This document shows, in pieces, positions 2 to 50,677 of a DNA stretch of 55,853 nucleotides (position 1 is its first letter; each line of letters starts with the position of its first letter). A program made the position numbers and the translations under genes. The notes beneath the pieces were generated by a model. That model searched no databases and was not told the origin of the DNA. It worked only from the letters and a program-made list of their open reading frames with translations. The DNA is from Candidatus Aphodosoma intestinipullorum (lineage in GTDB: Bacteria > Bacteroidota > Bacteroidia > Bacteroidales > Paludibacteraceae): contig JADIMV010000083.1 of NCBI GenBank assembly GCA_017694515.1, positions 1-55,853 of the forward strand, read 5' to 3'.

Positions 2-1888
2 GAGGTCGAACAGCCATTCTTCAACCTCAGCATCACAAAGGCCGACGGTTCGCCGCTTGGTGAATACGGCTGTGCCGAGGCATCCTTCACTTCCGGTTTC
101 AACACCGAGGACTGGGAGGTAGTCCCTGAACTCGAAGTGAACTGGAAGCCGTGGACCATCGTGGGCATCAACTTGCAGGACTATGACGGCGAAGACCTCA
201 AAATCAAACTGTCCACTTTCGACTGCACCCTTGGCGGCCACTACGGTTACGCCTATTTCACCCTCTCCTGTGACGATGGTCAGATTAAGGGGCTCAGCTG
301 TGGCGACAGCCCGGTGAACGCATTCAAGGCTCCCGACGGCTTCAACTACCGTTGGTTCGACTCCATCCAGCCCGATGTCACCCTCGGCACTGAGCAGGTC
401 TTCAGCGTCGGGCCTGACGATACACGCACATTCGGCTGCGATGTCATTCAGCCCACCAACGACAAATGCTACTACACTGTCTATGCCAAGGCAACGCCGC
501 GCTACCCCGTAGCCACGGGCGGCTGTGAGGCGAAAGTGGAGGAGTGCCAGAACGTGGTCGACTTCTCCAATGCCAGCTATGTGGCCTATGTCGACCCCTC
601 TACCAATGACACCACGGTCTCGGAGGACATGTGCGACAGCGTCTTTTGGGACTTTGGCGACGGTACAACCTCGTCCGAATGGGAGCCCGTGCACACATTC
701 CCCGAAAAGGGCGGCCGCTACACCGTAACCCTTAAAGCCGTATTGGCCGACTGTGAGGACGTACAGACCTTTGATATAGAACTGCCGCGCCTTGGCACTA
801 TCCGTGACACCACCACCGTCACCCTGTGCGGCGTGGAGGGCAAAGACCTCTACACTTGGACTGACGGCACTGGCAAGTCATACTATTACAGCGGTTTCTA
901 CTCCGACTCCCTTGTCAATGAGCTCACGGGCTGCGACTCCATCTCTGTCCTTGACCTCAGGTACTTCGCCCCCGCCGACACCACTCTCTATGACACCATC
1001 TGCTCCGGTGAGATATACACCTTCTTTGGCGATACGCTGACCGGAAGCGGCACTTATGTCAAGGACACCCTTACGGCCAACGGTTGTGACTCTGTGATAA
1101 CCCTCGAACTGAAAGTGAACGAGACCCTCATCCTCGATTTCTCCGACAGCTACTCTTTCTGTGCGGACGACACTGCGTTCATCCTCCCGTTCGCCGTCTC
1201 CTCCGGCACACCATCCACTTTCGACATGACCTTCGCCGATGAGTCCATGGCCTTCCTCAACCTCTCCGGTGCGGAGGCGGCCGATACGGCCATAGTGATA
1301 GGGCAGGACACGCTCATTGACCCAGGTGCCTACGCTGTGAAACTGACCTTCTACAACAGCGACTGCGGTAACTATGAGAAGGAGCTTACACTCTCCGTCC
1401 TTTATCCCGACTCCATAATAGCGCAACGTTGGAACGATGTACTCGGCGTGCGTACGGCGGACTTCAATGGCGGTTATGAGTTCAGCGCCTACCAGTGGTA
1501 CGAGAACGGCTCTCCGCTCACTGGCGAGATTGACCCCATCCTCTATCGCCCGGAGGGTCTCGACCCCACTTCTGAATATCAGGTCTTGCTCACTCGTCTG
1601 GACGATAATGTCTCCATGTTCTCATGCCCGCTTGTGCCTCGTCAGTACAGTGACATTGAGGTGATGCCCACAGTCACCTTTGCTGGTGACGGCATAGGTG
1701 TCAAGAGCGGCGTGGCTGGCATGGCGCGCCTCTGGACAGTCACGGGGCTGCTGGTCAAGACCATAAGCCTCTCCGATGGCGTGACGCGCATCCCCGCTCC
1801 ATCTGCCGTCGGCACATACATCCTTGAAATAATCCTCGACGACGGGCAGACCCGTTCGGAGAAAATAATCGTAAAACAAACCCACTAA
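2..1888 (+). CDS. A-type T9SS-sorted surface protein; 5' end lies outside the window
   Basis: The frame is open from nt 2 (EVEQPFFNLSITKADG...), so the GTG listed at 137 is internal. It aligns with the C-terminal ~620 residues of the 47600..50677 paralog: HYGYAYFTLSC, a PKD-like WDFGDGT motif, two C..GCDS..L.L.V repeats and a QRWNDVL..QWYENG module. It ends in a T9SS-type C-terminal domain (...GTYILEIILDDGQTRSEKIIVKQTH). Confidence 0.85.
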   Translation, partial: EVEQPFFNLSITKADGSPLGEYGCAEASFTSGFNTEDWEVVPELEVNWKPWTIVGINLQDYDGEDLKIKLSTFDCTLGGHYGYAYFTLSCDDGQIKGLSCGDSPVNAFKAPDGFNYRWFDSIQPDVTLGTEQVFSVGPDDTRTFGCDVIQPTNDKCYYTVYAKATPRYPVATGGCEAKVEECQNVVDFSNASYVAYVDPSTNDTTVSEDMCDSVFWDFGDGTTSSEWEPVHTFPEKGGRYTVTLKAVLADCEDVQTFDIELPRLGTIRDTTTVTLCGVEGKDLYTWTDGTGKSYYYSGFYSDSLVNELTGCDSISVLDLRYFAPADTTLYDTICSGEIYTFFGDTLTGSGTYVKDTLTANGCDSVITLELKVNETLILDFSDSYSFCADDTAFILPFAVSSGTPSTFDMTFADESMAFLNLSGAEAADTAIVIGQDTLIDPGAYAVKLTFYNSDCGNYEKELTLSVLYPDSIIAQRWNDVLGVRTADFNGGYEFSAYQWYENGSPLTGEIDPILYRPEGLDPTSEYQVLLTRLDDNVSMFSCPLVPRQYSDIEVMPTVTFAGDGIGVKSGVAGMARLWTVTGLLVKTISLSDGVTRIPAPSAVGTYILEIILDDGQTRSEKIIVKQTH

Positions 1889-1901
1889 AACCCATACAGC
1901 T

Positions 1902-4900
1902 ATGTCATTGAGAAAGATACGTTTCGCGCTTTGCGCCCTCCTCTTGTTGATGGGCGCGGCTGCTGCCTCTGCGCAGGTGAACATACAGATACCCTACCAG
2001 TGCAGCTTCGAAGACCCCGCCGAAAACGCTAACTGGGTACTTAACTCCGGGATAAACCCGCCCGCTGACCAGGCTCTGCATTTTGACCGCTGGTACATAG
2101 AGCGCGCCGCGCAGACTGATGGCCTTTACTCCCTCTTCATCTCCAACGACGGGGGACTTACCACTCAGTACGACGTGAAGTCTAACATCATAGTCGCGTA
2201 CAGGGAGATTGCCATGCCCGCCGGCAACTTCGAGTTCTCATTTGACTGGAAGAACAATGCCCCCGAGGACAAAGCCACATGCGGACTCTATGTCTGCCTC
2301 ATCCCCGCCAACATGTTCTCCGCGCCGCAGTCTGACCCCTCGAGCAGCACCATACAGCGCTGGCTCAGCTTCGCGCAGAGCATCGAGACGGAGGGTCAGT
2401 CCGAACCCTCTCCGCTCAAAGGCTCTCTCGACTGGAAGAACAGCTCCTTTACTCAGCAGTTCAACGGAACTGGCGAAACCTACTACCTCACCTTCGCTTG
2501 GCTGAACGAGGAGCGTACGGACACTCTGGCGAACTCCATAAGCGCCTGCGTTGACAACATACAGATAACAAGCAAGGCTTGTGCCAAACCTACTGATCTC
2601 ACCGTGGAGACCATGTGTGACACCATCAAGGTCTCTTGGGAGGGCATCTGCGACTGGTACGACCTCGAATACAAGCAGAGCGGCAGCTTGGAGTGGCGCA
2701 AGATCTCCCGCCTCCGTACCAACAGCCATATCCTCTCCGGTGTAGACGAAGGGGTATACGACTTCCGCGTGCGCGGCATCTGCTATGACTCTGTTTACAG
2801 TGCCTACGCCTATAAGAATAGCAATCTCCTCTTCTGCCCGGAGAATCATTGCATAAACTATGTCGACTTGCAGAACGCGGCAAACTGCTATGTCGGCACA
2901 TTCAAATCTTATGAACAGGACATTTTCACCCCTACAAAACCGGTGGATTTCGGGTCTGACGATGTCCGTAGCCGTCATGTGGTCAATATGGCGCGAAACC
3001 AGTTCGACCCCCGCACTAACTACGCGCTCCGCACTATACCCGAGGGCGAGATGGCATCTGTACGCCTCGGAAACTGGAATACCGGCGCGGAGATGGAGCG
3101 AATAGAATACACATATACCGTCGATTGCGATGTGGCCTCTATCCTTCTCCTCAAATATGCCATAGTCTTTGAAGACCCTGAGCACGTAAAAGAAGAGCAG
3201 CCGCACTTTGACCTCATTCTGCTTGACGAGGACGGCAATCAGATTGACCCCACTTGCGGTGCGGCAAACTTCTATGCCGATCGCCGTGCTAAGGGATGGA
3301 CGGCTATATCCACCGGTTTCGGCAGCACTATTGTATGGAAAGACTGGACCACCCTCGGCGTGAACCTCGAAGAGTACGACGGTCAGACCATCACCATACA
3401 GATTACCGCACGTGACTGTGCCGCCTCAGGCCACTACGGCTACGCCTATTTCACCCTCGACTGTGCCGAGGGTGAGATTGAGAGCCTCAGTTGTGGTGCG
3501 CTCGATTACATGACCGTGAAAGCCCCCGACGGCTTTAACTATCAGTGGTTCACTGAGTATGAATATGTCACTGACGCTAATGGCAATGTGATTGACAGCC
3601 TGCCCGGTAACGACAAGGGCACCACTCAGGAGATACAGATTGAGGCAAGCAACCGTGATGTCTACTACTGCCGCTGCTCGTTCAAGGACGAGAACCCCGA
3701 AAAGGCCGCATGCTACTTTGACCTCCACACCGTGATTGCACCTCGTGAGCCTTATGCCGATTTCCAGTGGGAGTGGGCGCCTGAGAACTGCCAGAACCGC
3801 GTGAAGTTCTACAACCGCAGCCACGTCCTGACTAAGGTGGACGGCAATATCGAACACACCTCCGAACCTACTCAGACCACATATTGGACGGTGAACGGTC
3901 AGATGGAACTTATGAACGATTTCATATACAATGTACCCCCCGAGGGTGACACCCTTGAAGTCTCTCTCTTGGCAGGTATATCTAACGATGAGTGTCAGGA
4001 CGACACGACACTGATAATCCCCATACCCTCCATACTCAGCGTCACCGACACCGTCGACTCCACCGTCTGTGAGGGTACGCCCGTCCAGTGGGGCAAGACC
4101 GTCACCTCACAGGCCGGATACATCCCCGACTCTGCCCTCAACATCGCGGGCTGTGACAGCGTCACAGTGCTCAACCTCAAAGTCATACCCGCCATCCCCG
4201 ACACAAAGATTGCTGATACCATATGCTATGGCGACTCTGTGTTGTTCAACGGTCGGTGGCTCAAGGAGACCGGCGAATACCCCCTTTGGGGTGAAACCTC
4301 CGCCGGGTGCGACAGCGTCGTCGTATTCGACCTCACAGTCAGGGACAAGGTTGAGTTCTCCTACGAGGTTACTGATGTGGCGGACAACCCCGGTTCGGGC
4401 GCGATAAGGATAACCGATGCCCCCAAGGGCTACACCTACACGCTCAACGGTGTCGAGGTCGCCCCGCTCACCCACCTCAACGGGGGCTACTATAACCTGA
4501 TTGTCTACGACTCCGTGGGATGCCCCAGCGAGGAGACAGAGATATTCATCAATCAGGACTGCTTGGAGTTCTCCCTCCTCGCCGACACACCCTATACCGT
4601 CTGCGGCGATGAGGACTCCATCGTTCTCCCGTGCTCCTTCTCCGCCGGTGCTCCCACCACATACTCCATCGCCTATGGCGAAAAGGCTCTTGCCGCAGGA
4701 TTTGTGGATTACAGGGACACCTTCGATGTGGACGAGATAACAATCCTCCTGCCTGACTCCTGTCGTCCGGACTACTACACCGCCGACCTCACAGTCAGGG
4801 ACATCATCTGTGAGGACACCGTGATTCCGCTCCGTTTCGTCGTCTACTATCCCTCATCTGTCGTGCGTCAAAAGTGGAACAATGTCCTTGCCGTGACCAA

Positions 4901-5342
4901 CGACAAATACAACGGCGGCTACACATTCTCAGCATTCCAGTGGTATAGGGACGGCCTGCCCCTCACTGGGGAGATAGGCTCTTACCTCTATCTCGGGGAG
5001 GATGCGGCTCTTGACACTGCCGCTGACTACCATGTGCTCCTGACGCGTTTGGACGATGGGGTATCCGTCCCCACCTGTCCCTTCAGACCGGCCGTCCGCA
5101 CCGATGTGGCCGATTACCCGGTTCCCGCCACATCTGTCGCCTTTGCCGGTGCGCCAATGCGGATACTCAATGTATGTGAGGCGACTGAAGTCTTGCTCTT
5201 CAACTCCGCAGGCCAGCTCCTTTGGAGTGGTAGCGTGGCTTCCTCTGCCGATGAAGTGCCGATGCCCGGCATACCCGGCGTATATATGATGGTCATACAG
5301 ACCGAAAGCCTCTGCACGCCCCACAAGCTGATTGTCCGATGA
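1902..5342 (+). CDS. B-type T9SS-sorted surface protein (MAM-like N-domain, FN3, conserved core, GCDS repeats, T9SS CTD)
   Basis: 1146-aa ORF starting 13 nt after the A gene. Signal peptide MSLRKIRFALCALLLLMGAAAASAQ. MAM-like N-module (PYQCSFEDPAENANW...FEFSFDW). FN3-like module (VSWEG..YDLEYK..GVYDFRVRGIC). Core FCPENHCINYVDL...HYGYAYFTLDC. Two GCDS repeats. C-terminus ...GVYMMVIQTESLCTPHKLIVR. Confidence 0.9.
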   Translation: MSLRKIRFALCALLLLMGAAAASAQVNIQIPYQCSFEDPAENANWVLNSGINPPADQALHFDRWYIERAAQTDGLYSLFISNDGGLTTQYDVKSNIIVAYREIAMPAGNFEFSFDWKNNAPEDKATCGLYVCLIPANMFSAPQSDPSSSTIQRWLSFAQSIETEGQSEPSPLKGSLDWKNSSFTQQFNGTGETYYLTFAWLNEERTDTLANSISACVDNIQITSKACAKPTDLTVETMCDTIKVSWEGICDWYDLEYKQSGSLEWRKISRLRTNSHILSGVDEGVYDFRVRGICYDSVYSAYAYKNSNLLFCPENHCINYVDLQNAANCYVGTFKSYEQDIFTPTKPVDFGSDDVRSRHVVNMARNQFDPRTNYALRTIPEGEMASVRLGNWNTGAEMERIEYTYTVDCDVASILLLKYAIVFEDPEHVKEEQPHFDLILLDEDGNQIDPTCGAANFYADRRAKGWTAISTGFGSTIVWKDWTTLGVNLEEYDGQTITIQITARDCAASGHYGYAYFTLDCAEGEIESLSCGALDYMTVKAPDGFNYQWFTEYEYVTDANGNVIDSLPGNDKGTTQEIQIEASNRDVYYCRCSFKDENPEKAACYFDLHTVIAPREPYADFQWEWAPENCQNRVKFYNRSHVLTKVDGNIEHTSEPTQTTYWTVNGQMELMNDFIYNVPPEGDTLEVSLLAGISNDECQDDTTLIIPIPSILSVTDTVDSTVCEGTPVQWGKTVTSQAGYIPDSALNIAGCDSVTVLNLKVIPAIPDTKIADTICYGDSVLFNGRWLKETGEYPLWGETSAGCDSVVVFDLTVRDKVEFSYEVTDVADNPGSGAIRITDAPKGYTYTLNGVEVAPLTHLNGGYYNLIVYDSVGCPSEETEIFINQDCLEFSLLADTPYTVCGDEDSIVLPCSFSAGAPTTYSIAYGEKALAAGFVDYRDTFDVDEITILLPDSCRPDYYTADLTVRDIICEDTVIPLRFVVYYPSSVVRQKWNNVLAVTNDKYNGGYTFSAFQWYRDGLPLTGEIGSYLYLGEDAALDTAADYHVLLTRLDDGVSVPTCPFRPAVRTDVADYPVPATSVAFAGAPMRILNVCEATEVLLFNSAGQLLWSGSVASSADEVPMPGIPGVYMMVIQTESLCTPHKLIVR

Positions 5343-5549
5343 GCGGTGTCCACTGTAGTCGCTTTTTCGCCTCTTGCCCCGCTGCTCGTTTGCGGAAATC
5401 TCCCGCCCTCCCGCAGCAGGGCTCAGGTGTGGCCAGGCCATTGATAACATAGTGCACGGCAAAGCCAACGGCGCACGCACGCTGACAGCTCTGCTGAATA
5501 ACAAGAACAAAACCAATTAACCTTTATACTAACTTTAATTTTTACCACT

Positions 5550-8500
5550 ATGAAACGACCTTCTTTACTGAAAGTGTTGCTGCTGGCAATGTTATTGCCG
5601 GTGTCGTTGGTGTCGTGGGGGCAGGATGCATCTGCCTCGATACTCATCAACGAGAGTTTCGGTGATGGTATCCCTGAGGACTGGACGCAGGAGCATGTCG
5701 TCGGCAGTCTCGACTGGGTACTTGACACGCAGAGCGATTTCCCCGATGGAACTCGCGAGGGCGATGGAGCGCGCATTGCGTTCCGCAATACTACTGGACA
5801 GACACAGGGTTGGCGCACTAAGCTTGTCACCCCCGTGCTTGACCTCTCTCTGAACAAAATCACCAACCCTATCCTCATCATCACCCATGCGCAGGAGAAG
5901 ATGACCGGGGACTTCGACACGCTTACCATCTGGTTCAAGACCGCAGCTGATGGCGATTGGAAAGAGCTTAAAAAGTTTGACAGTTACATCTCTTTCTGGC
6001 AGACTGACACCATCCCGTTGCAGCAGCCCGGCGCATACTATCAGCTAGCTTTTGAGGGCAGCGACAACTACGGACACGGTGTCGTGATTGACAACGTGAT
6101 TGTCATGCCTAATCCCGCCTGCATGCAGCCGCACAACGTCCAGATTTGGGATTTGTCTAACACCTCGGCACAGATATTCTGGCTGGCGGGAAATAACGCG
6201 AATGGCTACAATGTGAAGATTGACACCGTGCCCCTCTCCCGTGAACAGTTGAATGCTGGGGTCAAGGCGAGTGTGGTCGATGAGCACATCTCCGGCTCCA
6301 CTTCGCTCTTCTCCACTGACAAGTTGGAGACCAACACCACATACTATTTCTATGTACAGGCCGAGTGTCCTCTCGACAACAGCGCATGGTCTGAGGAGTT
6401 CTCGTTCCGCACGGCGGTACTAAGGACGCTCCCTTTCCGTGAGACTTTCGATACATTGGTTACTGGCTATATAAGTCGTAATCCAAGGTGGACATTCATG
6501 AGTGAGACAGACTTCTTGCCTTTCAATAATACCAACTCGGATACTTACGATTTGTCTGCTTATTCCCCTGATGCGACAGTCGCTCTCCTATTGGCGGGAG
6601 ACGATTATCCTGGCCCGATAGAGGCCAATAAATACGCTTATGTAGCATCTCCACGCCTTGTGGTGGATGACCTTTCGAAAGTACAAGTCTCTTTCTATGC
6701 CTCATATAAAAGCTATGGGCAGATGACTTCGCCTTATATGTCGAAGATCTACATAGGAGGCATGACCAATACGCAGGATTATAACACTTTTGTAAAGGTA
6801 GACAGTGTGGAATTTTATAATGCGAATTCTCAGAGAGAGTTTACCGTCTCTTTCATTGGCCATCCCGAGGTGGCTGAGTGCAAGTATGTGGCTTTCATGT
6901 CTGACTTCGATGCCTCTAATTTCATGGCGATAGACGATGTGAACGTATGGATACCGGGGAAGTGTCCCGAGCCGGCTAATGTGAAGGCGATGGCGATGTC
7001 AGGCACTGATTTGCGTGTGACATGGAACAGGAGCGGTGCGCCGGGCGGCAATGTAGTGGTGTCGCAAACGGAGGTGACGGATTTCTCGTCTCTTCCGCAG
7101 GGCGCGACAAAGAAGGCTCTGGAAGCGGGGAAGGACACTGTGGACTTCACTGTGGAAGAGTGGACGGAGTATTATGTCTATGTGCAGAATGTGGCGGCCG
7201 ACGGGACTGTGAGCGGATGGAGCGAGGCCGAGTGGCTGCGTATGCCACAGAGCCGCACTTCGCCTGTGAAAAATGTACCTGTTCTGTTTGATTTCGAAGA
7301 TGAAGAGCGTTATCTGATAGATGGTACTGTATTTTCAGAACCTGAAATGGTCGCTGGTATACAGGGGTTTAGAAATATTGCTGGCAGCATGCCTTGTGTG
7401 GAGAGATCTGGAATACCAGTAGAAAAGAGTTCTAAAAATGAAGTCCGGGTTAATGTTTACAATTATCCGGGTCACTCATACACGGTTTTCCCTGCAATAG
7501 ACGGACTGGCTCAATGCCGCGTGGTGCTGTGGGCGTATTATACCAGTGGACGTGATTATGGAATGTTTGAGGTCGGTATAATGGATGATGCTAATGACAT
7601 ACACTCTTTCGTGCCTGTGGATACACTTGTTCTTACCTCCTCTTGGGAAAGGTACTCGGTAGACCTTGATAGTTACAGTGGTAATGGAAAATTCCTTGCT
7701 TTTAAGGCTTTATATAAGGGTACTCCAGATGGTAATACATTCGGGTTTGACAACGTAAGGATAGAGGAGATACCGCAGTGCATCGAAGCTGTCAATGTGC
7801 AGATTACTCCCGGTGAGACCACTGCGGAGGTCACTTGGGACGCTATGGCTGCCGCCACCGCTTGGGAGGTCAAGGCCTCGGCGGAAAAGATAGACTATTC
7901 CGAGCTTGAGACTGTAGACCAGGGTAAGTTCCTCCCTGTTGAGGTCACAGGCAATAAGGCTCTCGTCTCTGGCCTCATTCCGGGGTTGAACACCTACTAC
8001 GTCTGGGTGCGACCCGTCTGTGGTGAGGGTACTTATGGCGATTGGACTGCCCCGATAGAGTTTAAATCTCTTTGTAAAGCTAAGGAGTCTCTTCCTTACG
8101 TGCTTGACTTTGAGGGGTATCCTACGATGGATCCGTATTGGGAGGAGTATAAGGAGATGCCTATCCCGTGTGTTTATTTCGGTACGGTTACTAATACGAA
8201 CGGCTATGTGATATCTCCAAATATAACTGCTTATAGAACAAAACAGGGTAGCAGGAGTATGGAATTCGATGGCTCTGCTGATTTTAACTGGATTGCTATG
8301 CCTGAGATGAATGCCGACATAAATGACTTGCAGGTCTCTTTCTGGTTCGCTAAAAGTAGCGGTGGAAGTGGCCCTGCTCATGTACGTGTTGGTGTGATGA
8401 CTGATCCATTGGACTCTACCACTTTTGAGACGGTAGGAATATACACTTCTGAGGAAGGTTATGGTGTTTGGACTGAGGTGATATGCCCCTTCACGGACTA

Positions 8501-11500
8501 TCAGGGCACAGGTAAACACATAGCCATCATGGCTCACAAGGCGGACGATTCTCCGCAATTCTTTGTCGATACTATCGCTGTGGATGCTAAGCTCCCCTGC
8601 ATAAAGGTCTCGCATCCCGAAGCTCTCGACATTACGGCAAACACGGCCACTCTCTCGTGGGAGAAAGGTGATAAGGAGTCCGAGTGGTACGTGATTGTCT
8701 CCACCCGCACATTCTCTTCCGAGGAACTCGAGCAGATATATGCCGACTCTTACTCTGGCGATGGCGTGGCTTTCAGTGGCTTTGTTGACCAGAATCCATA
8801 TCAGGCAAAAGACCTCGCTGCCGACACATACTACTACTTCTATGTGCGCTCCGTCTGTGACAAGGCGGAGGGCGTATACGGCGATTGGGCTACCCGCACG
8901 GGTGAGTTCCGCACCAAGTGCGATGCCGCTATCCCCGGCGAGACCTTCTACGACTTCGAGTCCTCCGGCGGTGAGGGTGCTGTTCCTTCTTGTTGGAGCG
9001 GCAACGGTGATTTGGTTGTGGGCGGTGATGACTATTATCACTATCCGGAGGCGCACAGCGGCAGCATGATCGCTTCTATTGGCTCTTATAGTGGCGGTTA
9101 TCTGCACACGATAAACATATCCTGTGAGGACATTGATGAGGTGCAGGTCTCTTTCTGGGCCTCTGCTAAAACGAATGTGACGGAACGCATCCCGTTGGAG
9201 GTTGGCGTACTCTTCAATCCTAACGACATCTCCTCTTACGTGGCTGTTGACACCGTATGGCTCTATCCCGAGTTCCAGTTCTACACTGTGAAGTTTGATA
9301 ACTATGCAGGCGATGCATACGGTAACCGTGGCAAGTACATCATGTTCTCTAACCGCGATTTGGCTGGGGCTGCCGAGTGCTACATTGACGATGTCTCCAT
9401 CGACCTCAAACCCGACTGCGCTCCCGCTGATGTTGTCATTGACTCCATCGGAGAGGCTGGTGTTGAGGTGAAGTTCGTGGGTGGTAAGGCCCCGTACAAC
9501 TATGTCGTCTCATCTGAGAACATTGACCCCACTCAGTTCAACCCTGACCTCAGCGATATCAAGGTCACATCTGAGACGGAACATCTCATCGATGGTCTCA
9601 CTCCGCTCACTGAGTACTTCCTCTACGTAAGCTCCGCTTGCGGTGACGGGGGTTACCTCTGGTCTGCCCCGATTCGCTTCACTACGGCCTGTCTATCTGT
9701 ATGGCCGCTCCCCTATGAGGAGAATTTCAATAAGTATAACCAGTATGAGACATCGACAGGTGGTCTGTTCGTAAAAGTGCCAGACTGCTGGACTACAGTA
9801 TTCAATGGCAGCAGCAGGCCGGACTTTACTGTCTTTAATGGCAACAATAGGGCTGACGGCAACTGCCTGCTGGCCAACATGGGCGGCACTGACGGCGAGA
9901 AGGAATACATCGTCCTGCCCGGGGTGGATAAACCCATAGAGGAGTGTCAGGTAGAGTTCCGTATGCAGGACAGCTGGTGGTCTCGCACAGCGCAGGCTCG
10001 CATCGTAGTTGGTGTCGTGGAGGATATCTCAAATCAGGCTACAATAGACTCTACTTTTGTCGGACTGGACACAATCACTCAGCGCAGTGACATCTTCACA
10101 CCCTGCAAGGTGAAGATGGATAACTATCAGGGCGAGGGTGGCAATATAGCCATACTTGTCTATCTGGACGGTGACCAGTATGTCTATGACCTCTATTTAG
10201 ATGACATAGTCATACGTCACACTCCCCCTTGCCCCATGCCTTTCGACCCGAAAGTCAAGGTTTATGACGATGAGTCTATAACCATAGAGTTTGACAATTC
10301 GGACGGCGGCTCGGAGTGGGAAGTGAAATGCGGTGTTAAGGGCTTCGACCCGTCGACGGCATCTGCCGTGAAGTTCTCGTCTTCCGTTTACACCGTCACC
10401 GGCTTGCAGCCCGAGACTCTCTATGACATATACATCCGTACCCTCTGTCCCGATGTGGCGGAGATGACCGAGAGCAGTTGGGTGATGATTTCCGGACGCA
10501 CATCCGCTCCTGCCGTCAAGGATGAGGACTATCCGCTTGAGGACGACATGTCTGAAAATAAAGACGACTGGAAGCCCACGGAGAGCGAGGAGATTGAGAT
10601 GGTCAACCAGTGGTATATCGCCGATAATAAGGAGATAGACGGCCGGACGGGCACGATGATGTATATCTCCGAGGACGGCGGTACGACCTGCAGCTATAAC
10701 GAGGACGAGAATTCCGCCGTAATACACAGGGTCATGAAGTTCGACGTGGGTCGCTACACGCTCAGCTTCAATTACAATGTGACCGGTTATGAGGACTGGG
10801 GCGATCCGGCTGACTATCTCCGCATTGCGATGATGCCTGAGGCTTATACAATCGGATTTGACGATTATGGCGATATGTACTTGTATGACGAGTACGGCAC
10901 GGATTATGATATGGGTCCCTATGGTGATGACCTGCCTGAGGACTTCGTCGATTTGGGCAGTTACTATCTCTCCGGCGGTTGGCAGGAAGGGAATATCCAC
11001 ATCGATATAGCTCCGGGAAATGAAGGCATATTCAAGATTGTCTTCATGTGGATTGTCGATGGATGGAGCTACCCGGACGCTACCTCACCTTCGGCGGCCA
11101 TAATGGACTTCTCTGCTGATTACAGTCCGTGCGTTGAGCCGAAGAATGTCAGGTGCGATGCGGTTGGGGTCACTACTGCCGGCCTCTCTTGGACTCCGAT
11201 GGCCAAAGAGGAGTACACCACCTACGATGTCTATGTGACAGGCACGACAGACCTCCAGACACCTCCGGCTGCTGATGCGGAGGATGCCGGTATGGTGCTC
11301 CACGAAGAGTTCGCTGACACTGCGGCAAGCATTGATGTCCTGAAAGAGAATACGCCGTACATAGCGTTTGTCCGCCTCAAATGCGGCGAGGGCGACTATT
11401 CTCCTTGGAGCGCGCCTTCGGCTGTGTTCCGCACCGACTGTGGTCCCACTGAGGTAGACCGCCTCTACAGCTTCGAGGAGAGCGAGGGTCATGAGCTCTA

Positions 11501-14210: not shown

Positions 14211-14322
14211 AGGCCGGGTAAAAGATGCCGTTCGTGCAATGGGAGGTGCGTAGGATGCCGCCTCCCTGCACGGGGGCTGACGGAAAAGAGACAGGTCTTT
14301 TCTAAATAAATATCAGAAGTGT

Positions 14323-14362
14323 GCGGGTGCGTTTCCGAGAGGGAAGCGCACCCGCTTTTTTT
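14323..14362 (+). terminator. Rho-independent terminator after the left G gene
   Basis: GC-rich hairpin gcgggtgcgtttcc-gaga-gggaagcgcacccgc followed by a T7 run. Confidence 0.75.
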
Positions 14363-14484
14363 CATGTGTCTGTCCTTTCAACTCCGTAGTTCCTTTGAGA
14401 CCTCTGCAAAGGCTCGTTTTTCCCCGTTGTATCTTCTTGTTATACAATGGAAAGTTTTAAGTTTTGCAGAGGTTTTCCTTTGTG

Positions 14485-14560
14485 TAAATCAAAGTTAAAA
14501 ACACGTACTCTCGCCGAAGCCTCAGGCCAGCCTCTCCGAAGCCTCTCCCTAACCTCAGGC
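14485..14560 (+). repeat. Dispersed intergenic element, copy A
   Basis: Identical 20-nt core GTTAAAAACACGTACTCTCG at 14494..14513. CCGAAGC heptads follow at 14514 and 14536, with a degenerate middle unit GGCCAGC at 14525. Spacing is 11 nt. Confidence 0.8.
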
Positions 14561-14626
14561 ATAGCCTGTGCCGTCCGCGTGGAAATCGCTATGGAAGAAA
14601 CCGTTGCGTTTGTCTCAAACTTTCGC

Positions 14627-14634
14627 TATCTTTG
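14627..14634 (+). promoter_or_regulatory. Bacteroidetes sigma-A -7 box (TATCTTTG) upstream of hutU
   Basis: Exact TAnnTTTG match about 100 nt upstream of the hutU ATG. Confidence 0.45.
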
Positions 14635-14733
14635 CGGTTGGTCTGTACGGTTGCGCGGCGGTGTGCCGGTACAGGTTGACGTAATAACGTCATTGTGTTG
14701 ATACTCAAAATAATAACTAAAATAATAACTACT

Positions 14734-16749: not shown

Positions 16750-16780
16750 TTTCTTAACTGACTAATAACATATTACGGCA

Positions 16781-34538: not shown

Positions 34539-34567
34539 GGGCTGTCTTGGCTGAAAATGACCATTTG

Positions 34568-34575: not shown

Positions 34576-34600
34576 GTGAAAGGTAAGCGCAATGCCAACG

Positions 34601-34686
34601 GCAAAACGTCAGTTTTGCATACAATATGTGCCGGAGTGTCAAGACCAGTGCTTTCACAGAGGCTTGACGCTCCGGCGCATATTGTA
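34601..34686 (+). other. Two adjacent long hairpins (7-bp and 24-bp stems)
   Basis: GCAAAAC-gtca-GTTTTGC at 34601..34618. Then tacaatatgTgccggagTgtcaag (34620..34643) pairs with cttgacGctccggcGcatattgta (34663..34686) across a 19-nt loop. The two non-Watson-Crick positions are G-U only in the plus-strand RNA. Confidence 0.7.
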
Positions 34687-34811
34687 CAAGACTTCAGTCG
34701 TGTCGTCGGCATTGCCGCACCGCCTCCTATCTTCGTGAAACAAAGATAGCGAAAGTCGGAGACAATGGCAAATGCCCGTTTCCCCGCTTTGCTTATGGCA
34801 GTTCCACACTA

Positions 34812-34900
34812 TAAATTAAAGTTAAAAACACGTACTCTCGCCGAAGCTCCTCCGAAGGCTCCCCGAAGCGTCTGCCTATCCTCTCGCCATTCTCCTGCCA
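34812..34900 (+). repeat. Dispersed intergenic element, copy C
   Basis: Core GTTAAAAACACGTACTCTCG at 34821..34840. Heptads CCGAAGC / CCGAAGG / CCGAAGC at 34841, 34852 and 34863 (11-nt phase). It aligns with copy B for ~90 nt. Confidence 0.85.
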
Positions 34901-35204
34901 ATTTAAACTCAAATCTGCCAAATAGTTAAACGTGAGTTGGGGGTTAATGTCCCAAAAGCGGGAAACAGGCCGCAGACCAAGGAGAGGATGGAGGAACGGT
35001 AGTCGAAGGTCTGGTTACATACGGTAAATCGCTCGGACAGTCAGTCGAAGATATAGCGTTAGATTGTATGCTGGCAGGGGATGCGCTGTAGTATAGAATA
35101 TAGGAGAGCGGTAGATAAGAGCCCTTGTCTGGAGAGACATAGCGTTTGGCCTTTGCCGACAAGCTGTAGACCGGATACAGAAGTGCCGTATGGGACAAAC
35201 CAAT

Positions 35205-35288
35205 GCAAAAAACGATGGCGGACAATGTGATTGCCCGCCATCTCCATCATCATTAACAAACTTGGGACTGTACGTGCGTACAGTCTCC
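35205..35288 (-). terminator. Two tandem terminator hairpins downstream of the right G gene
   Basis: Both read on the minus strand. ggagactgtac-gcac-gtacagtccc lies at 35264..35288. gatggcgg...ccgccatc followed by GTTTTTTGC lies at 35205..35242. Confidence 0.65.
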
Positions 35289-35295
35289 TCTATAA

Positions 35296-43833: not shown

Positions 43834-44213
43834 AGGTTTTTCTGTTTAGTTAGATTAAAGTAATATGTTGGTAAAATCTTATACTGTTCTATCCGTACTC
43901 ATTCCCCGATGATTTATGCAAAGGCCGTCGCAGTGTGAGTACACACATAATATAAATCCTTAAAACATACATTCATCTTCGGATATACATTGTTGTTGTG
44001 TATGAATTTGATGCTATACGTCATTGATAATCAGAGGACTTATCTTGCCGTCAGCTATCTTTCGGCTATCTCCTCCTTATCCTCTCTTTAGCCATTCGCC
44101 AGTTTCTTCCATTATTGTTGCTAAAACGTCCATATATGGAAACTCATCGTCATGGTCACTATTGTACACAGACTGAATTCATCGGCGCGGCTGATGCCTG
44201 CCGGTGTCATACC

Positions 44214-47200
44214 TCATCTTACAAGTATCTTATACGGGGTTGTCCTTCCTTCTTGTTCTATTGTCAGTATGTACACCCCGGGCATATCCGGTACGGTCAG
44301 CTCATTGTGCCAGGCATCTATCTCTGTCTCTGAACAGAGTATGCCAGACACGCTGTACAGTCGTGCTGTGGATTGCCCTTTCACATTGGCAATCATCATT
44401 TTGCCGCCCGCCGTAGCCTCGGTCTGCATGGGATATTGCGTAGCGTCGCTTCTCGTTTCCGGCGTGAGTGGGCACGTCGGCAGCGTGATGCCGTCTTCGG
44501 CGCGTGTCAGTACGGCGTGGTACAATGCCGTCGTGTCGAGTGTGTTTCCCTCGCCGAGGTAGAGGTATGAGCCGGTTTCTCCAGCAATAGGGTTTCCGTC
44601 CTTATACCATTGGAACGCCGTGAAAGTGTATCCGCCGTTGTACTGCCCGTTCGTAACGGCCAGCACGTTGTTCCATTTCTGCCGCACTATACTTTTCGGA
44701 TAATGTATTTCGAAACCGATGGGGAAATACAGTGTATCGCACACTTTGTCTCCAACGAAAACCACTGCGTCATATATGTCCGGACGGCACGAGTCGGGTA
44801 TGGTTATCCGGATGTCGCTTCCCGAGAACTCCTCCCTGATGTTGGCAAATCCCGCCTGCCGTGCCTTGTCGCCGTACCTGATGCCATACTCTGTCGGGAT
44901 GCCTTGTGTATATGTGTAGCCGACAGGCAATATGCTGTCATCGGCGCAGGCTGCCCATATAGCCGATGTGTCTATCGTTATGTCTACGCAGACCCTGCCG
45001 ACTGTCACGGTCTGCGGCCTGCTTGCACATCCGTGTGAGTTGAATACTACTATCTCATACTCTCCTCCGCTTAGGCTGTCGAGCCGTCCGCCCGTCACCC
45101 CGTCTATCGAGTAGCGGAAATTCTCCTCTGCGCATGTGATTTCTATCTTTCCGTTGCGCGGTTCAGTTTCCGGCTCTGCCGTGCATGAGAAGAGTACCTC
45201 GGGCAGTTCAGTGACATTGACTATCACAGTAGAGTCGCACCCGTAGCGGTTCGTGAGACGGTATTCGTACCGTCCGCTCCCGCTGACGGGTTCAGGCCCT
45301 GCGTCTGACATATCTCCGTGACAGATGGTGTCATTGACAGTTGTGGTCTCGCTGCGCGGATTGACATGCAGGTTAATGATTGTGATGCTGTCGCATCCGT
45401 ATCGGTTCTTGATTTCACAGACTATGGTCGTGTCCCTCACTGCGCCGAATATTTGTACTGGGTTGCAGAATGCGAATGTCTCTCCGTAACAGAGGGTGGT
45501 GTCCGTTTCGCGGGTCTCCGTGAGTATGGACGGCACTTCTATGGTGTAAGTGGTGTCGTCGTAGCATCCTCCCGAGATGCCGGCTGTGAGCTTGATCTCT
45601 ATTTCTCCGCCCTCGTTAGGCACGGTCAACAGCGGATGCCGCTCCTCGTATTCCGTGCCGTTGATGGTCCAGACCCTTGTCTCCGCCTCCTCGTCCGTGT
45701 GGACGGTGTTGCCCTTCTCATCACGTGATACCACATGGCTCTGGTCGGTCAGTTGTATGCGGTTGCCGCAGTCCGATGGGATGTGTTCCCAGCCGAATGT
45801 GGCGAACGGGAAACGCGGCGACACCTTAGTGCGCAGTTCAAACTGGCATCCCTCGCCGCCCTCCTTAAACAGGCAGTGACATACATATTCGCGGTCGTCG
45901 TCAGAGGCTGCCTCATAAATCTGTTCAGTGGAGAGCGTGTCGTTCATATTGTCCGACAAAAACCATGCGTAGTCGAACCCGTCCGGGGCTTTCAGATCCA
46001 TAGTAGGGCTTGCTCCGCAGCTCATACCTTGTATGGTTCCTGACGCGCATCCGAGAGTGAAATAGGCGTAGCCGTAGTGTGCCCCTTGTGTGCAGTCCTG
46101 TGTGATGAGGCGTATCTTCACGTCGCGCCCCGCCATGCCCGATAGGTCGAAGCCGAGTGTGGTCCAGTCCTTCCATACTATGGTGCTGCCGTTCTGCTCC
46201 TCGACATTCCATCCTTCTGCATTCATGTCCGCGTAGAACGATGCCGTGCCGCACTCGGGGTCTATCAGCCGTCCTTCGTCATCGTATATCTCGAGGTTGA
46301 AGTACGGCTGTTCTTCTGTGGGGTGTTGCGGGTCTTCGAATACTATGGCGTATTTGAGCAGCAGTATGCTCTGGTCAGGCGATATGGTGACCGTGTACTC
46401 TATGCCGTCAGCCTCAGCCCCTGTGTTCCAGTTGCCTATGCGTACGGAGGCGAGTTCGCCGTCCGGTATCGTCTTAAGCCTGCCTCCTGTGTGTATGTCG
46501 GTCTCTCCGGCCATCCAGTGTACTGTGTGGCGGCTGTAAATGTCCTTATAGCCGAAGTCCTGCGGCATGACGGCGGCCATCTGCGGTGACGGCCCTGCAT
46601 CGCCTATGAGACATTTCACATTCCCGTCGTTCAGGTCTATGTAGTTGATGCAATGGTTCTCAGGACAGAACACGAGGTTGGTGTATTTCAGCGTGTATGC
46701 GCTCCATAGGGTGTCACCCCCGCCGACTGGCGACACTGAGCGTATGCGGAAATCGTATATCCCTTCTTCTATGCCGCCAAGCGTGTAGCTGTGGACGGTG
46801 CTGCCGACAGAGCCGCTCAGGTTTCTGACGCTCCTCCACGAGTCAGTGCCGGCCTTGCGCCATTCGAGGTCGTACAGCAGAGCCTGCCCCTTCCATGTTG
46901 ACGGCCGTGTCGCACATATCGTCCACAGTTATACCCGTCGGCGCTTTTGCTGAAGAGTTGCTTATCTGTATGTTGTCTATAGCCGTACTGATGCGGGTCG
47001 TCATGTCCGCCGGTTCGTTGTTCACCCAGATGAAGGCGAGGTAGTAGGTCTCTCCGGCGTTGAACGAGTAGGTGAATGACGATGTGTACCAGTTGCCGTC
47101 ACCTGCGAGCCGTGTACCACGTGTAGTGCCGTCCTGTTGCAGCAGACTTTGGCAGCTGACCAATGAAAGAGGTTCCATGTCGCTGCTGCCTGTCACGCTT

Positions 47201-47592
47201 CCCGGTGCCGCTCCGGCCGATGCGCTGTAGACGCTCACATAGAGTCCGCTCTTGCTGTCCGAGGCGTAGTTCCTCCATTGGAAAGTGATTTCGTATGCCC
47301 CTTGCGGCAGGCTTACCTCCCGGTATGCCACGGCCACATTCTTCTCTTTCCCGAATTTGAGGCTGTCCTCTCCCCAGTAGGAGATGTACATCGAGTGTTC
47401 GCCATCGTAGGATGTCGCGCCGCTTATGTACCATTTGTCCGTACAGTCATCGCCCGGGTTTAGTATCCATTCGCTGTTCTCCGCATTGTCCTCGAACCCG
47501 TTGAAGTAGGGCAGTGTAATGTTCTGTGCCGCTGCAGCCGTGGCGTACAGCATCAGGAAGAGGGACAGTAGCTGTCTTGAAATCTTCTTCAT
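44214..47592 (-). pseudogene. B-type T9SS surface protein gene interrupted by one frameshift (ORFs 46843..47619 and 44214..46736)
   Basis: The N-terminal ORF has a signal peptide MKKISRQLLSLFLMLYATAAAAQ and a MAM-like module, and ends ...TVDDMCDTAVNMEGAGSAV..*. One shift near 46896..46917 restores an FN3 (TWKGQALLYDLEWRKAGTDSWRSV...GIYDFRIRSVSP). That FN3 runs into the 840-aa ORF (FCPENHCINYIDL... to T9SS CTD ...GVYILTIEQEGRTTPYKILVR). The result is collinear with 1902..5342. Confidence 0.8.
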
Positions 47593-47599
47593 GGTATGA

Positions 47600-50500
47600 T
47601 TACATTTGGCGTTTGACAATGATTTTTTCCGCCGAGCGTGTGCCGTCGGCGAGAGTGGTCTCCACTATATATGTCCCTTCAGTGCCGGGCGATTCCACTA
47701 TGTTTACTCCGGTGGTTATCTTAGTGACGCTGACGAGCTGGCCTGTGACGCTCCATATTCGTGTCACTCCCGCCGCGCTGCTTTTGACCGATATATTGCC
47801 GCCAGTGAATGTAACAGTCGGGAACACTTCTATTTCCGCGAACTTTTCCGGGGTGACAGGGCAGGTGTTCGCCACGCTGCCGTCAGCCCGCGTGAGCTGT
47901 ACGTGGTATTGCGCCTCGGTGTCGAGACCATCAGGCTGATATAGGTTGGCAGACACCTCGCCCGTGAGCGGCATACCGTCCTTGTACCACTGGTAGACCA
48001 CGAAGTCGTAGCCTCCGTTGTATGCGCTGTTGCGCAAGCCCAGCACGTCGTTCCACCGCTGCACGATAATAGTGTCCGGGTAGTTGATGTCCAGTGTTAC
48101 GCTCTTTTCCTCATCGCCGCACTCCATGTTCTCGAAACGGAATGTCGCTGTATATCTGTCTGGCATGATAGTTGGAGGAATAGGTATCACGAGACTCCCG
48201 TCCTCCGGCTTCCCGTCCACTATGTTCAGTTCTTCGGCTCCGGGCTTGTCCACGCTCATGTCATACGAAGTGACGATGCCAGATGAGAGCGTGTACGGTA
48301 TGACAATCGCGCTGTCGTCGGCACATACGCTCACATTCTCCGTCCCAAGCGTGATGATGAGTGATTCGTTCACGAGAAGGTCGAGGTGAACTATGGAGTC
48401 GCATCCCCATTTGCTTTTGAATACCTCCGTGTATGAGCCTGTTTCGTAGAGCGTCTGCGTTCCGAAGATGTATGGTGTATCTGCCGAACAGATGGTGTCC
48501 TTCGTGTATTTCTCATATTTGTCATGCACCGTGAGGTTCAGCGTCACTATCGAGTCGCAGCCTGTGGTCTGGCTGACTACTGTGTCAAAATATTGTCCTT
48601 CGCTGAAAAGGAAATTCCCGCCGAACTCATACGGAGTGCCGTAACAGGTCGTTGCGTTGATGGTGTCGCCAAGCCTGTCGAGCTGCGGCAGGCTGATCTC
48701 GAATGTCCGCGCCTCTTCGCAGTCGGCGAGCTTTGCCCACAGGGTGACTGTATATGTACCGCCTTCCGAAGGGAATGTGTGTACAGGCTCCCATTCGCCG
48801 CATGTAGTGCCGTCGCCGAAATCCCAGTGTACGCTGTCGCATATCTCGTCGGTATATGTCGTGTCGCCGGACAGGGGATTGACCAGTATCACACTGCTGT
48901 GATTAGTGAATCTGACCACGTTCTGACAGCGCTCCACCGCGCTTTCGGCACTCATGTCGGGATGAGGAAAGCGCGGTATGGCTTTGGCCGAAACGGTGAA
49001 GTAGCAGTTGTCGTTTGTCAGCTGGATACATTCGCACCAGTATGTGGCGGTGTCGGGCTGAGGTACGGCTATCTGCTGGCGTGTGCTGTATGTCACATCG
49101 GGTGTGCCGTCCCTGTACCACCGGTAGCGGAAACCTGGAGGCGCTTCGAACTTATTCTCATCGCCTGTGCCGCAGCTCAGGGCACGGATCTGTCCGTCGG
49201 AGCATCCGAGGGCGAAATAGGCATAGCCGAAATGTGCACTCTGCGAACAGTCCTTTGACGTGAGCTGTATCTTCAGGGTCTGCCCCTGATACTCCGCGAG
49301 GTTAACGCCCATGGTGGACCAGTCACGCCACACGAGCGAGTCGATGGTCTCCCAAGTGTCGTCATCTGTATTAGTGCCGGGAATGAAGTCGGCTGTGGCG
49401 CAGCCGTATTCGCTGAGGTCGTAGCCTTCTTCGTCAATCACGCGTAGCGTGAAGCGCGGATTATTCTCCATCACGTGATTAGGGTCTTGCAGCACTACTG
49501 CATATTGCAGCAGCAGTACTGCTGTGTTTTCCAAATCAACGGGGTAGTCATATTCTATCATTTCGGCTTCTGAGCCTACGTCCCAGTTTCCTATCCGGAC
49601 TGAGGCTATCTCGTCTTTCGGTACTGTGCGCAGGCGGTTGGCAGTACGGGGGTCTGTTTCATCCTTGTCGTAGTGGAGGGTGTGCCGGCTGCCTATCGAC
49701 TCATAACCTGCATCGATGATACCCGGATATTTGTCCGGGTGCAGGAAGTCTCCGAAGTAGCATTGGCAGTGTTCGCCTTCAAGATCCATGTAGTCTATGC
49801 AGCGTGTACCGGTGTAGAAGACAAATTGTTTTTTCGATACCCACGCGCTGTGGAACTCTCCGCAGTTAGAGCGTATGTATACATCGTAGACTCCTTCACC
49901 GAACCCGTTTACTGTTACGGAGTTGCCTGTATATTCCCGGTGTTCAACCCAGGCCGTGTCTCCCTGACGGCGGAGGCGGAAATCGTAGCTGTCGGCACTG
50001 CCCTCCCATGTGACGGAAACATATTCTCCGTTTGTGGCGAACTGCACTTTCCGTGGCCTGTCACACGCCCCTTCGGGAATAACATTTATGTTGTCTATGG
50101 CTGCCGATTGATTGTTCACACCGCCTTCGCCGTTGTTCCACATTAGGACGAGCTTGTGCGGCGTGCCGTCCGAGGTGATGGTACAGTATGTTGAGGTCCA
50201 GTCGGTGTCATACAGTTTCTGTCTATTGTCAGTGAAGCGCAGGGCGCAAGTGTCTACCCAGTTAGGACGCAGTCCCTGAGAATGACAGTTGGTGGGTTCG
50301 GTAGCGGGTATCCATCCCACATATAATACATCGTTGATGTTGCCTCCGCACATATAGTCGAACGACAGCTCGTATGTCCCGGCATCAAGAGTGAGCGTGC
50401 GGTAGGCTACGGTGAAGTCGGCGTTGAGCGCGTAGACCGCGCTTGTCCCGCCATCGGAGGAGATGTATATGCCGTAGTCGCCCCCGTTTTTTTCTCCTGT

Positions 50501-50677
50501 GCCTATGTGCCAGATGTTCGCGCATTTCGGTCCTTGGTTGCCAGGGTTAAGTGTCCATGCGCTATGTTCGTTGACATCTTCAAAGTCGCACTCATATTTG
50601 TTGTCTGCGTATGTATGTCCGTATAGTGTGAACGCTATGGCGATGATGGCCATACGTATAGTAATGTGGTTTTTCAT
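47600..50677 (-). CDS. A-type T9SS-sorted surface protein (1025 aa)
   Basis: Signal peptide MKNHITIRMAIIAIAFTLYGHTYA. MAM-like YECDFEDVNEHSAWTL...YELSFDYMCGG. FN3 (VSVTWEG..YDFRLRR..GVYDVYIRSNC). Core CIDYMDL...AHFGYAYFALGC. PKD-like WDFGDGT. Two GCDS repeats, a QWY module, and T9SS CTD ...GTYIVETTLADGTRSAEKIIVKRQM. Confidence 0.92.
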   Translation of the reverse strand: MKNHITIRMAIIAIAFTLYGHTYADNKYECDFEDVNEHSAWTLNPGNQGPKCANIWHIGTGEKNGGDYGIYISSDGGTSAVYALNADFTVAYRTLTLDAGTYELSFDYMCGGNINDVLYVGWIPATEPTNCHSQGLRPNWVDTCALRFTDNRQKLYDTDWTSTYCTITSDGTPHKLVLMWNNGEGGVNNQSAAIDNINVIPEGACDRPRKVQFATNGEYVSVTWEGSADSYDFRLRRQGDTAWVEHREYTGNSVTVNGFGEGVYDVYIRSNCGEFHSAWVSKKQFVFYTGTRCIDYMDLEGEHCQCYFGDFLHPDKYPGIIDAGYESIGSRHTLHYDKDETDPRTANRLRTVPKDEIASVRIGNWDVGSEAEMIEYDYPVDLENTAVLLLQYAVVLQDPNHVMENNPRFTLRVIDEEGYDLSEYGCATADFIPGTNTDDDTWETIDSLVWRDWSTMGVNLAEYQGQTLKIQLTSKDCSQSAHFGYAYFALGCSDGQIRALSCGTGDENKFEAPPGFRYRWYRDGTPDVTYSTRQQIAVPQPDTATYWCECIQLTNDNCYFTVSAKAIPRFPHPDMSAESAVERCQNVVRFTNHSSVILVNPLSGDTTYTDEICDSVHWDFGDGTTCGEWEPVHTFPSEGGTYTVTLWAKLADCEEARTFEISLPQLDRLGDTINATTCYGTPYEFGGNFLFSEGQYFDTVVSQTTGCDSIVTLNLTVHDKYEKYTKDTICSADTPYIFGTQTLYETGSYTEVFKSKWGCDSIVHLDLLVNESLIITLGTENVSVCADDSAIVIPYTLSSGIVTSYDMSVDKPGAEELNIVDGKPEDGSLVIPIPPTIMPDRYTATFRFENMECGDEEKSVTLDINYPDTIIVQRWNDVLGLRNSAYNGGYDFVVYQWYKDGMPLTGEVSANLYQPDGLDTEAQYHVQLTRADGSVANTCPVTPEKFAEIEVFPTVTFTGGNISVKSSAAGVTRIWSVTGQLVSVTKITTGVNIVESPGTEGTYIVETTLADGTRSAEKIIVKRQM

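Follow-up and report, generated by a model that had tools for sequence, protein, structure and literature searches.

A stretch of 55,853 nt from Candidatus Aphodosoma intestinipullorum (assembly GCA_017694515.1, contig JADIMV010000083.1), hereafter the window, carries the same three-gene order, A-B-G, twice. As read from the table of open reading frames (ORFs) and their translations, the two sets of genes form convergent arms that flank a 21-kb block of housekeeping genes. We interpret them as two ancient paralogous operons for type IX secretion system (T9SS) cargo, each of which would be a replacement island that is hypervariable among strains, and we give this reading a probability of about 0.7.

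Organization of the two cassettes

The left cassette lies on the forward strand, with A_L at 2..1888, B_L at 1902..5342 and G_L at 5550..14210. The right cassette lies on the reverse strand, with A_R at 50677..47600, the B-type gene (B_R) at 47592..44214 and G_R at 43833..35296. Both were found where a preliminary description of this DNA had placed them, and the positions of its six genes are right. Two of the six are not whole: A_L runs off the start of the window, which holds only 628 of its 1030-1037 residues (full length from other assemblies), and B_R is split by a frameshift. The cassettes fill 29.6 kb, not the roughly 33 kb estimated earlier, and their products fall into two protein families (A/B and G) with domain types in common rather than into one. 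The hut, mnmA, metG, nagB and thiamine genes reported between them were all identified in the housekeeping block (14211..35295, both strands).

Allelic variation among strains

Some contigs encode a hutU protein 100% identical to that of the window and carry a different left cassette (left allele 2), in which B has 1154 aa (73% identical) and G has 2891 aa. In a sliding comparison, this allele shares 55-80% nucleotide identity with the window over the 3' end of B_L and over G_L, whereas on the same contigs 12 kb of the core, that is, of the housekeeping block, is 95-99% identical. The boundaries between alleles 1 and 2 lie about 140 nt (about 47 codons) into A_L and at window position ~13918, the start of the region encoding the C-terminal sorting domain (CTD) of G_L; from 13918 on, the two alleles are about 98% identical. 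Identity switches within a few tens of bases at ~7035 of the allele-2 contig L001 and at ~13918 of the window, and both boundaries are inside reading frames that stay open. Since the breakpoints fall within the first and last genes, the signal peptide of A and the CTD of G are common to both alleles. The CTD-coding end of G_L (13918..14210, forward strand, last ~97 codons) marks the 3' limit of the hypervariable segment. Synonymous divergence (dS) is 0.08-0.17 for core genes and above 1.7 (saturated) for cassette genes, with a nonsynonymous divergence (dN) of 0.21-0.24 for the latter and a dN/dS between alleles of about 0.12 for G. On these values, the cassette alleles are far older than the strains that carry them.

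In some of the allele-2 contigs, G is present in two pieces, as 1259 + 820 aa in one contig and as a 54-aa leader ORF and a remainder in others (L111 7374..13647; L113 5944..7898; L115 3769..4208). As the coverage of these contigs is 2.5-4x, further gene disruption is uncertain and sequencing error is possible.

The right cassette is absent from six contigs whose UbiA protein is identical to that of the window. One of them (L102), read in detail, has 243 nt of unrelated sequence after DUF2975; the final 52 nt of G_R and then UbiA come next, and the flanks are 97-98% identical to the window. The segment missing from such cassette-less strains, 35348..51457 (reverse strand, 16.1 kb), comprises the upstream region, A_R, B_R and G_R minus its last 52 nt, and is replaced by the 243 nt. 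The remnant of the G_R 3' end points to deletion rather than insertion. Another right allele, L116, whose B is 77% identical, is a mosaic: its identity is about 75% over A and B but 92-94% in part of G_R.

Frameshift in the right B gene

B_R (44214..47592, reverse strand) is broken into ORFs of 258 and 840 aa by a 2-nt deletion between 46899 and 46898. Translation in frame 1 ends after ~265 codons (stop at 46843-46845), and homology resumes in another frame. The sister strain GCA_949299245.1 (contig CASFZQ010000013.1), which matches 13 kb of the right cassette at 97.5% identity, has an uninterrupted B_R of 1135 aa as called. At the site of the deletion it reads GTCATCACATGG where the window reads GTCA--ACATGG, and this is the sole length difference there. 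The downstream ORF (46736..44214, 840 aa) has no signal peptide. The deleted form is present in two independent assemblies, ERZ8811479 and ERZ27234726, indicating that it is a real allele. B_R is a recent pseudogene in the window strain. Programmed frameshifting was also considered and was rejected: the sister strain keeps the frame, and the change is a plain 2-nt deletion outside any repeat tract.

One species-level background shows four states of a cassette: intact, replaced by another allele over 15 kb, carrying a frameshifted gene, and cleanly deleted.

Assembly integrity

Misassembly could in principle produce such a picture, either through a spurious second cassette or through chimeric contigs that join different species and mimic the alleles and the deletion. 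All data are metagenome contigs, the low coverage of some allele-2 contigs has been noted above, and one sample shows a graph branch at window position ~21.3 kb. However, the cassettes are too unlike at the DNA level for an assembler to confuse them. One 97-kb contig carries both cassettes and both junctions, and records of a 321-kb contig from another strain list the proteins of both cassettes as well. The junction between allele 2 and the core does not differ between ERZ16268044, ERZ16268171 and ERZ16268064 and occurs in BRZ_SM as well, the deletion junction is found in six contigs, and the allele boundaries lie within frames that stay open. Because both cassettes and junctions recur in several independent assemblies, an artefact, which the preliminary description had already discounted, is very improbable.

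The branch mentioned above concerns ERZ27234726. Its contig k141_365074 is 99.96% identical to window 4734..21345, reaching the 3' end of metG (~21250..21345), and beyond 21345 runs into unrelated genes, namely PspC and two others encoding 452 and 1333 aa. The contig of the same assembly with the right cassette ends at ~21248 by calculation. At this site there is a branch in the assembly graph or else a structural variant (insertion or rearrangement).

Age of the duplication

The left and right proteins are fully collinear. A_L shares 46.6% amino acid identity with A_R over 627 aa, B_L shares 41.9% with B_R over 1164 columns, and G_L shares 30.0% with G_R in a single collinear high-scoring segment pair across both proteins (blastp, E = 0 in each case); a global alignment of the two G proteins has few gaps in each 150-column block. 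The A and B proteins are also paralogues of one another, with ~31% identity. By Nei-Gojobori counts, the proportion of synonymous differences (pS) is 0.72-0.77 (saturated) and dN is 0.49-0.77 for the three left/right pairs. The conserved stretches remarked upon earlier for their synonymous differences do differ in this way, with 75.5% DNA identity between 4863..5001 and 44687..44549.

To place the copies among their relatives, a neighbor-joining tree of A/B proteins was used; it is distance-based and indicative only. A-type and B-type proteins fall apart into separate groups. A_R pairs with the A protein of one cassette (L020) of the metagenome-assembled genome (MAG) 'uncultured Bacteroidales E19__bin91', A_L pairs with that of the other cassette (L021) of this MAG, and B_L and B_R each group with their own relatives at 67-77% identity. 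Since each copy has its own counterpart in E19__bin91, the split between left and right would be older than the genus-level divergence. The duplication is ancient, with both copies maintained as coding sequence. The proposal of an old duplication kept under selection, with no recent gene conversion, is supported by the saturated synonymous sites, by the dN values and by the separate orthologues in another genus.

Recombination between the left and right copies

The inverted orientation of the cassettes and the collinearity of their proteins had led to the suggestion that they form a very large imperfect inverted repeat, across which the 21-kb core could invert or the left and right paralogues could exchange segments by gene conversion. 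The repeat holds at the protein level. At the DNA level, by contrast, it dissolves into short islands of 67-76% identity over 40-340 nt, with a longest exact common word of 23 nt. In a comparison that covered left alleles 1 and 2 and the right alleles of the window, L016 and L116, no stretch of 100 nt or more is over 79% identical between left and right, whichever known alleles are paired. A longest match of 23 nt and an identity of at most 79% provide no substrate for RecA-type recombination and show no trace of gene conversion, and the saturation of synonymous sites likewise speaks against recent conversion.

Repeats of the invertible-promoter or phase-variation type were not found upstream of A_L or A_R or in the B-G spacers; near A_R there are only three short imperfect repeat pairs (13-19 nt, 79-92% complementary). 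The gene calls include no recombinase near the cassettes, and a tRNA/tmRNA scan for integration sites gave none. In every assembly, G_L leads into hutU and G_R (or DUF2975) leads into UbiA, as seen in more than 10 contigs from independent assemblies. The 14.2..35.3 kb segment thus has a single orientation, with no inverted arrangement among the assemblies examined. Inversion of the core or exchange between the paralogues is therefore extremely unlikely. The convergent layout appears to be incidental and without mechanical consequence, and the actual exchange would take place between alleles of one locus across strains, not between left and right.

Recurrence of the A-B-G triad

A scan of GTDB species genomes retrieved at least 80 loci from Paludibacteraceae, Candidatus Aphodosoma and Bacteroidales MAGs (gut and rumen), along with a few under other labels. 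The window's own species is not among the loci listed, where the best match is at 46%. Among the loci listed, a same-strand G-family gene is present in 38 of the 69 with an A/B-size gene, and 31 of the 69 have two A/B genes together with G, in the orders aaG (16), Gaa (13) and GaaG (1). E19__bin91 alone has four loci, two of which are full A-B-G cassettes. The hut and thi flanks are not conserved at the other loci, and metG lies near a cassette in at least four genomes. As cassette copy number and position vary among related Bacteroidales, a point that the preliminary description had raised as a question, two cassettes 21 kb apart are not exceptional in this lineage. The triad is a recurrent module of uncultured gut Bacteroidales, often in multiple copies per genome. 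These triads keep one A-type and one B-type gene, suggesting a heteromeric A-B partnership. A fixed triad of A, B and a ~2,850-aa G is not described in the literature found on choice-of-anchor J with T9SS or on Paludibacteraceae with T9SS.

A cassette with a B that shares 67% identity with B_L adjoins pyruvate:ferredoxin oxidoreductase genes instead of hutU (L119..L121; SRR33454318/20/23), which places the same cassette lineage in a different genomic context and in another organism.

Protein architecture and predicted export

All six products are predicted to carry Sec leaders and T9SS type A CTDs, with all-beta, lectin-like jelly rolls set between FN3, Ig and PKD domains. Searches of the Pfam and NCBIfam libraries found the choice-of-anchor J, MAM, FN3, PKD and TIGR04183 domains that had been proposed. 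For choice_anch_J (NF038128, cut-off 30 bits), G_L scores 97.2 bits in three stretches and G_R 104.4 bits in four, and the N-terminal fragment of B_R reaches 27.1 bits, under the cut-off. For MAM (PF00629, gathering score 26.4 bits), the scores are 46.2 bits in G_R and 30.0 bits in G_L. Both G proteins also contain several domains of the FN3 or purple-acid-phosphatase-N type, and a PKD domain was identified in the A proteins.

The T9SS CTD (TIGR04183, cut-off 23 bits) is above threshold in G_L (32.1 bits) and G_R (28.4 bits) and below it in A_R (22.9 bits), B_R (18.9 bits), A_L (17.2 bits) and B_L (16.8 bits). The same model matches 16 of the 17 A/B family members at E <= 0.01 (best 9e-7), the A/B profile matches gingipain CTD structures weakly in a PDB search, and the C-termini of all six proteins read K-I-I-V-x. 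Sec-type leaders, read from the sequence, have a basic N-terminus, a hydrophobic core and a small-residue site. A glutamine follows the leader in five of the six proteins (B_L, B_R, A_L, G_L and G_R), and across 106 homologues the conservation of Q25 is 90% or more. No T9SS component genes were found in the window.

The bodies of G_L (2886 aa) and G_R (2845 aa) share one architecture, comprising ~8 diverged units of ~280 aa, each a MAM/choice-of-anchor-J jelly roll with FN3. The units are 22-30% identical to one another and are followed by Cys-rich 'GCDS' repeats, as in A/B, and by the CTD. The C-terminal 628 codons of A_L, whose 5' part lies beyond the window, encode PKD, the Cys-rich GCDS repeats and a weak CTD; A_R (1025 aa) is likewise of A type, with a PKD domain and a borderline CTD. 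The order of domains in B_L (1146 aa) was derived from Foldseek, an AlphaFold2 model and the family profile. A signal peptide with glutamine after the cleavage site is followed by an N-terminal jelly roll resembling choice-of-anchor J and by FN3. The conserved jelly roll at the centre comes next, with Ig/PKD-like domains after it, and the chain closes with Cys-rich repeats, an Ig-like domain and the CTD.

The AlphaFold2 model of B_L, made with 106 homologues, is all-beta with a mean predicted local distance difference test (pLDDT) score of 86. Foldseek matches of the whole model are MAM-Ig-FN ectodomains, titin and fragments of GhpA, with low template modelling (TM) scores, as expected for flexible strings of domains. 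Because this search was swamped by generic Ig/FN3 strings, the central domain was modelled separately. This domain (B_L residues 303-542; 2808..3527, forward strand) is the best-conserved part of A/B, with invariant Cys, His, Asp and Trp columns, and no Pfam or NCBIfam model matches it. Modelled alone, it is predicted to be a beta jelly roll (pLDDT 86, predicted TM score 0.84), with weak fold matches (TM 0.3-0.5) to CBM61, CBM27, CBM11, MAM and a phage tailspike C-terminal domain. Its profile retrieves 4298 representatives of 50%-identity clusters at E <= 1e-3, mostly proteins of ~1,000-1,150 aa with the domain near residue 300.

Homologues are nearly all unnamed (at least 990 for B_L and at least 232 scored for G_R), and the sole names among those listed are 'fibronectin type III domain-containing', 'T9SS type A sorting domain-containing' and 'choice-of-anchor J domain-containing'. 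A PDB sequence search with G_L gave no match, and one with the A/B profile returned nothing beyond pieces of FN3, Ig, PKD and CTD. The O-glycosylation motif D[ST][AILVMT] is enriched 3-4x in A/B; this partly reflects the conserved GCDS[IV] repeat, and the enrichment was not used as evidence.

Housekeeping block and intergenic elements

The forward strand of the housekeeping block encodes hutU, hutH, hutI, mnmA and a nagB-like gene (long protein). The reverse strand encodes metG and a row comprising a transglutaminase-core protein, thiD, Fic, TenA, thiE, thiS, a radical-SAM gene and UbiA. Each cassette is closed by a terminator-like hairpin, at 14323..14355 (forward strand, 14-bp stem) for the left and at 35214..35242 (reverse strand, 13-bp stem) for the right, in both cases followed by a T run.

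The hutU and UbiA operons each have their own promoter motif of the TAtcTTTG type. The strict Bacteroidetes -7 motif TAnnTTTG occurs only before hutU and UbiA and is absent upstream of A and in the B-G spacers. The two promoters lie in a 31-nt inverted pair (14604..14634 and 34741..34771, 87% complementary) that contains the motif TAtcTTTG, so that the promoter regions of these outward-facing operons, hutU and UbiA-thi, are near-identical. An intergenic CCGAAGC-rich element of ~82 nt is present in three direct copies (73-88% identical), located after G_L (14486..14567), between metG and the nagB-like gene (23668..23749) and between UbiA and G_R (34813..34894), and has no Rfam match. At the Rfam gathering threshold, the whole window gave no match, including to the thiamine pyrophosphate (TPP) riboswitch.

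In the thiamine-related row (32429..34712, reverse strand), thiS, thiE and TenA come after the genes with which the row opens, those for a UbiA-family prenyltransferase and a radical-SAM protein. The transglutaminase-core protein (26070..28823, reverse strand, 917 aa) also has a Big_1-like Ig domain and no NCBIfam match, and its relatives lie near A-like genes in two MAG loci (L081 and L084). In the Fic stretch (29688..31141, with the Fic gene at 29949..31100), the cassette-less contigs L102 and L103 have a 6.4-kb trio in place of Fic between TenA and thiD. The trio encodes an N6_N4 methyltransferase, an SLFN_AlbA_2/HATPase protein and a ResIII/RE-endonuclease protein, and resembles a type III restriction-modification system. 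The block of lowest G+C content in the window (30001-32000, 0.465) overlaps this stretch, which may be a small variable defence/toxin slot within the thiamine gene row.

Proposed mechanism and functional readings

Each operon copy ends in its own putative terminator, and the two copies face each other across an unrelated housekeeping block. In the mechanism that we propose, whole-cassette alleles would be exchanged by homologous recombination in the conserved flanks. Cassettes are also lost, by deletion for the right cassette in some strains or by decay as in the frameshift of B_R. The pattern would fit diversifying or frequency-dependent selection imposed by phages or host immunity. The lectin-like folds on FN3/Ig spacers suggest a binding, adhesin or coat function, and the proteins are probably adhesins or coat proteins under diversifying selection.

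Several observations weigh against this reading. The low dN/dS between alleles indicates that they are old and under purifying selection, with no visible positive selection. The strain comparisons rest on metagenome contigs, some with low coverage, and 'same species' is taken only from the ~97.5% identity of a 12-kb core stretch. The CTD scores of A_L, B_L and B_R (16.8-18.9 bits) are under the curated cut-off, and export and surface location are predicted only from signal peptides, CTDs and adhesin-like folds. The weakness of the fold matches makes ligand binding by the central domain a guess at the level of fold class.

A more specific version of the island reading, which we regard as unlikely in its entirety, holds that the triad builds one dedicated T9SS-dependent surface structure. 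Its alleles would be swapped like serotypes and dropped or broken when costly, under pressure from phages or antibodies, and the central jelly roll would be a new ligand-binding family of ~4,300 50%-identity clusters. One possible layout would have G as a long stalk or fibre with ~8 lectin modules, and A and B as a heteromeric pair or lattice. The swaps may occur by recombination anchored in the shared ends of the cassette that code for the signal peptide and the CTD.

The variability might instead reflect substrate niche rather than phage or immune pressure, if the triad were a nutrient-capture system, secreted or tethered to the surface, that binds dietary or host glycans for uptake. Such a role would suit the gut and rumen Bacteroidales that carry it, and the central and choice-of-anchor-J/MAM domains do resemble carbohydrate-binding modules. 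These fold matches are weak, however, and no catalytic domain, SusC/D pair or glycoside hydrolase was found in or next to the cassettes, either in the window or at related loci. We consider nutrient capture quite improbable.

If the two operons are indeed variable islands of T9SS cargo, these loci would offer a clear natural illustration of how T9SS surface cargo varies among strains of an uncultured gut lineage. They are candidate phage receptors, adhesins or antigens and could help to tell strains apart in metagenomes. Both the A/B central domain and the architecture of the triad represent large families outside the libraries searched (Pfam and NCBIfam), and a Pfam-type model together with one structure or binding study would annotate thousands of proteins.

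Comparison with known systems

The T9SS type A cargo of Bacteroidota includes the gingipains. The proteins of the window resemble such cargo in having a predicted Sec leader, a predicted C-terminal sorting domain of ~75 aa (TIGR04183/PF18962; above the cut-off in the G proteins) and large all-beta, multi-domain bodies of Ig/FN3-like repeats. The Foldseek matches to fragments of GhpA, the Aureispira grappling hook, point the same way, as we take GhpA to be a T9SS-secreted cargo; a resemblance to the large T9SS adhesins SprB and RemA of Flavobacterium may likewise be presumed. Unlike these, A, B and G have no sequence-level family match to any characterised cargo. The B_L model also matches the MAM-Ig-FN3 ectodomains of the metazoan receptor phosphatases PTPRK and PTPmu (8a1f and 2v5y), which similarly have an N-terminal jelly roll followed by beta-sandwiches. 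This likeness is at the fold level, for B_L only and at ~10% identity, and implies no evolutionary or functional link.

The surface-layer (S-layer) proteins TfsA and TfsB of Tannerella forsythia are encoded by two adjacent, co-oriented genes and are each longer than 1,000 aa. As an analogy only, they share with the A-B pair the arrangement of large, adjacent and co-oriented T9SS cargo genes in a Bacteroidales organism, and the retention of one A-type and one B-type gene per triad fits a heteromeric partnership of this kind. The triads differ in that a third giant gene always stands beside the pair, and no Pfam or NCBIfam match points to TfsA/TfsB. The TfsA/TfsB S-layer pair is reported to depend on the T9SS (PMC4175972).

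Replacement flexible genomic islands occupy the same position in closely related strains, hold highly diverged or different genes of the same functional type that encode exposed structures, and have sharp boundaries (Lopez-Perez, Martin-Cuadrado and Rodriguez-Valera 2014, PMC4033161). Their exchange is attributed to homologous recombination in the flanks and has been linked to phage pressure (PMC4033161). The cassettes of the window share with them a fixed locus, a highly conserved core next to strongly diverged cassettes and sharp boundaries, the exposed structure being here a prediction from export signals and folds. They differ in that each is a single three-gene T9SS cargo operon and not a glycosylation or O-chain cluster, in that the breakpoints lie within the first and last genes, and in that two paralogous islands stand 21 kb apart. 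Collectively, the cassettes would belong to known kinds of system, T9SS surface cargo and replacement islands, and they are built from protein families that lie outside the libraries searched.

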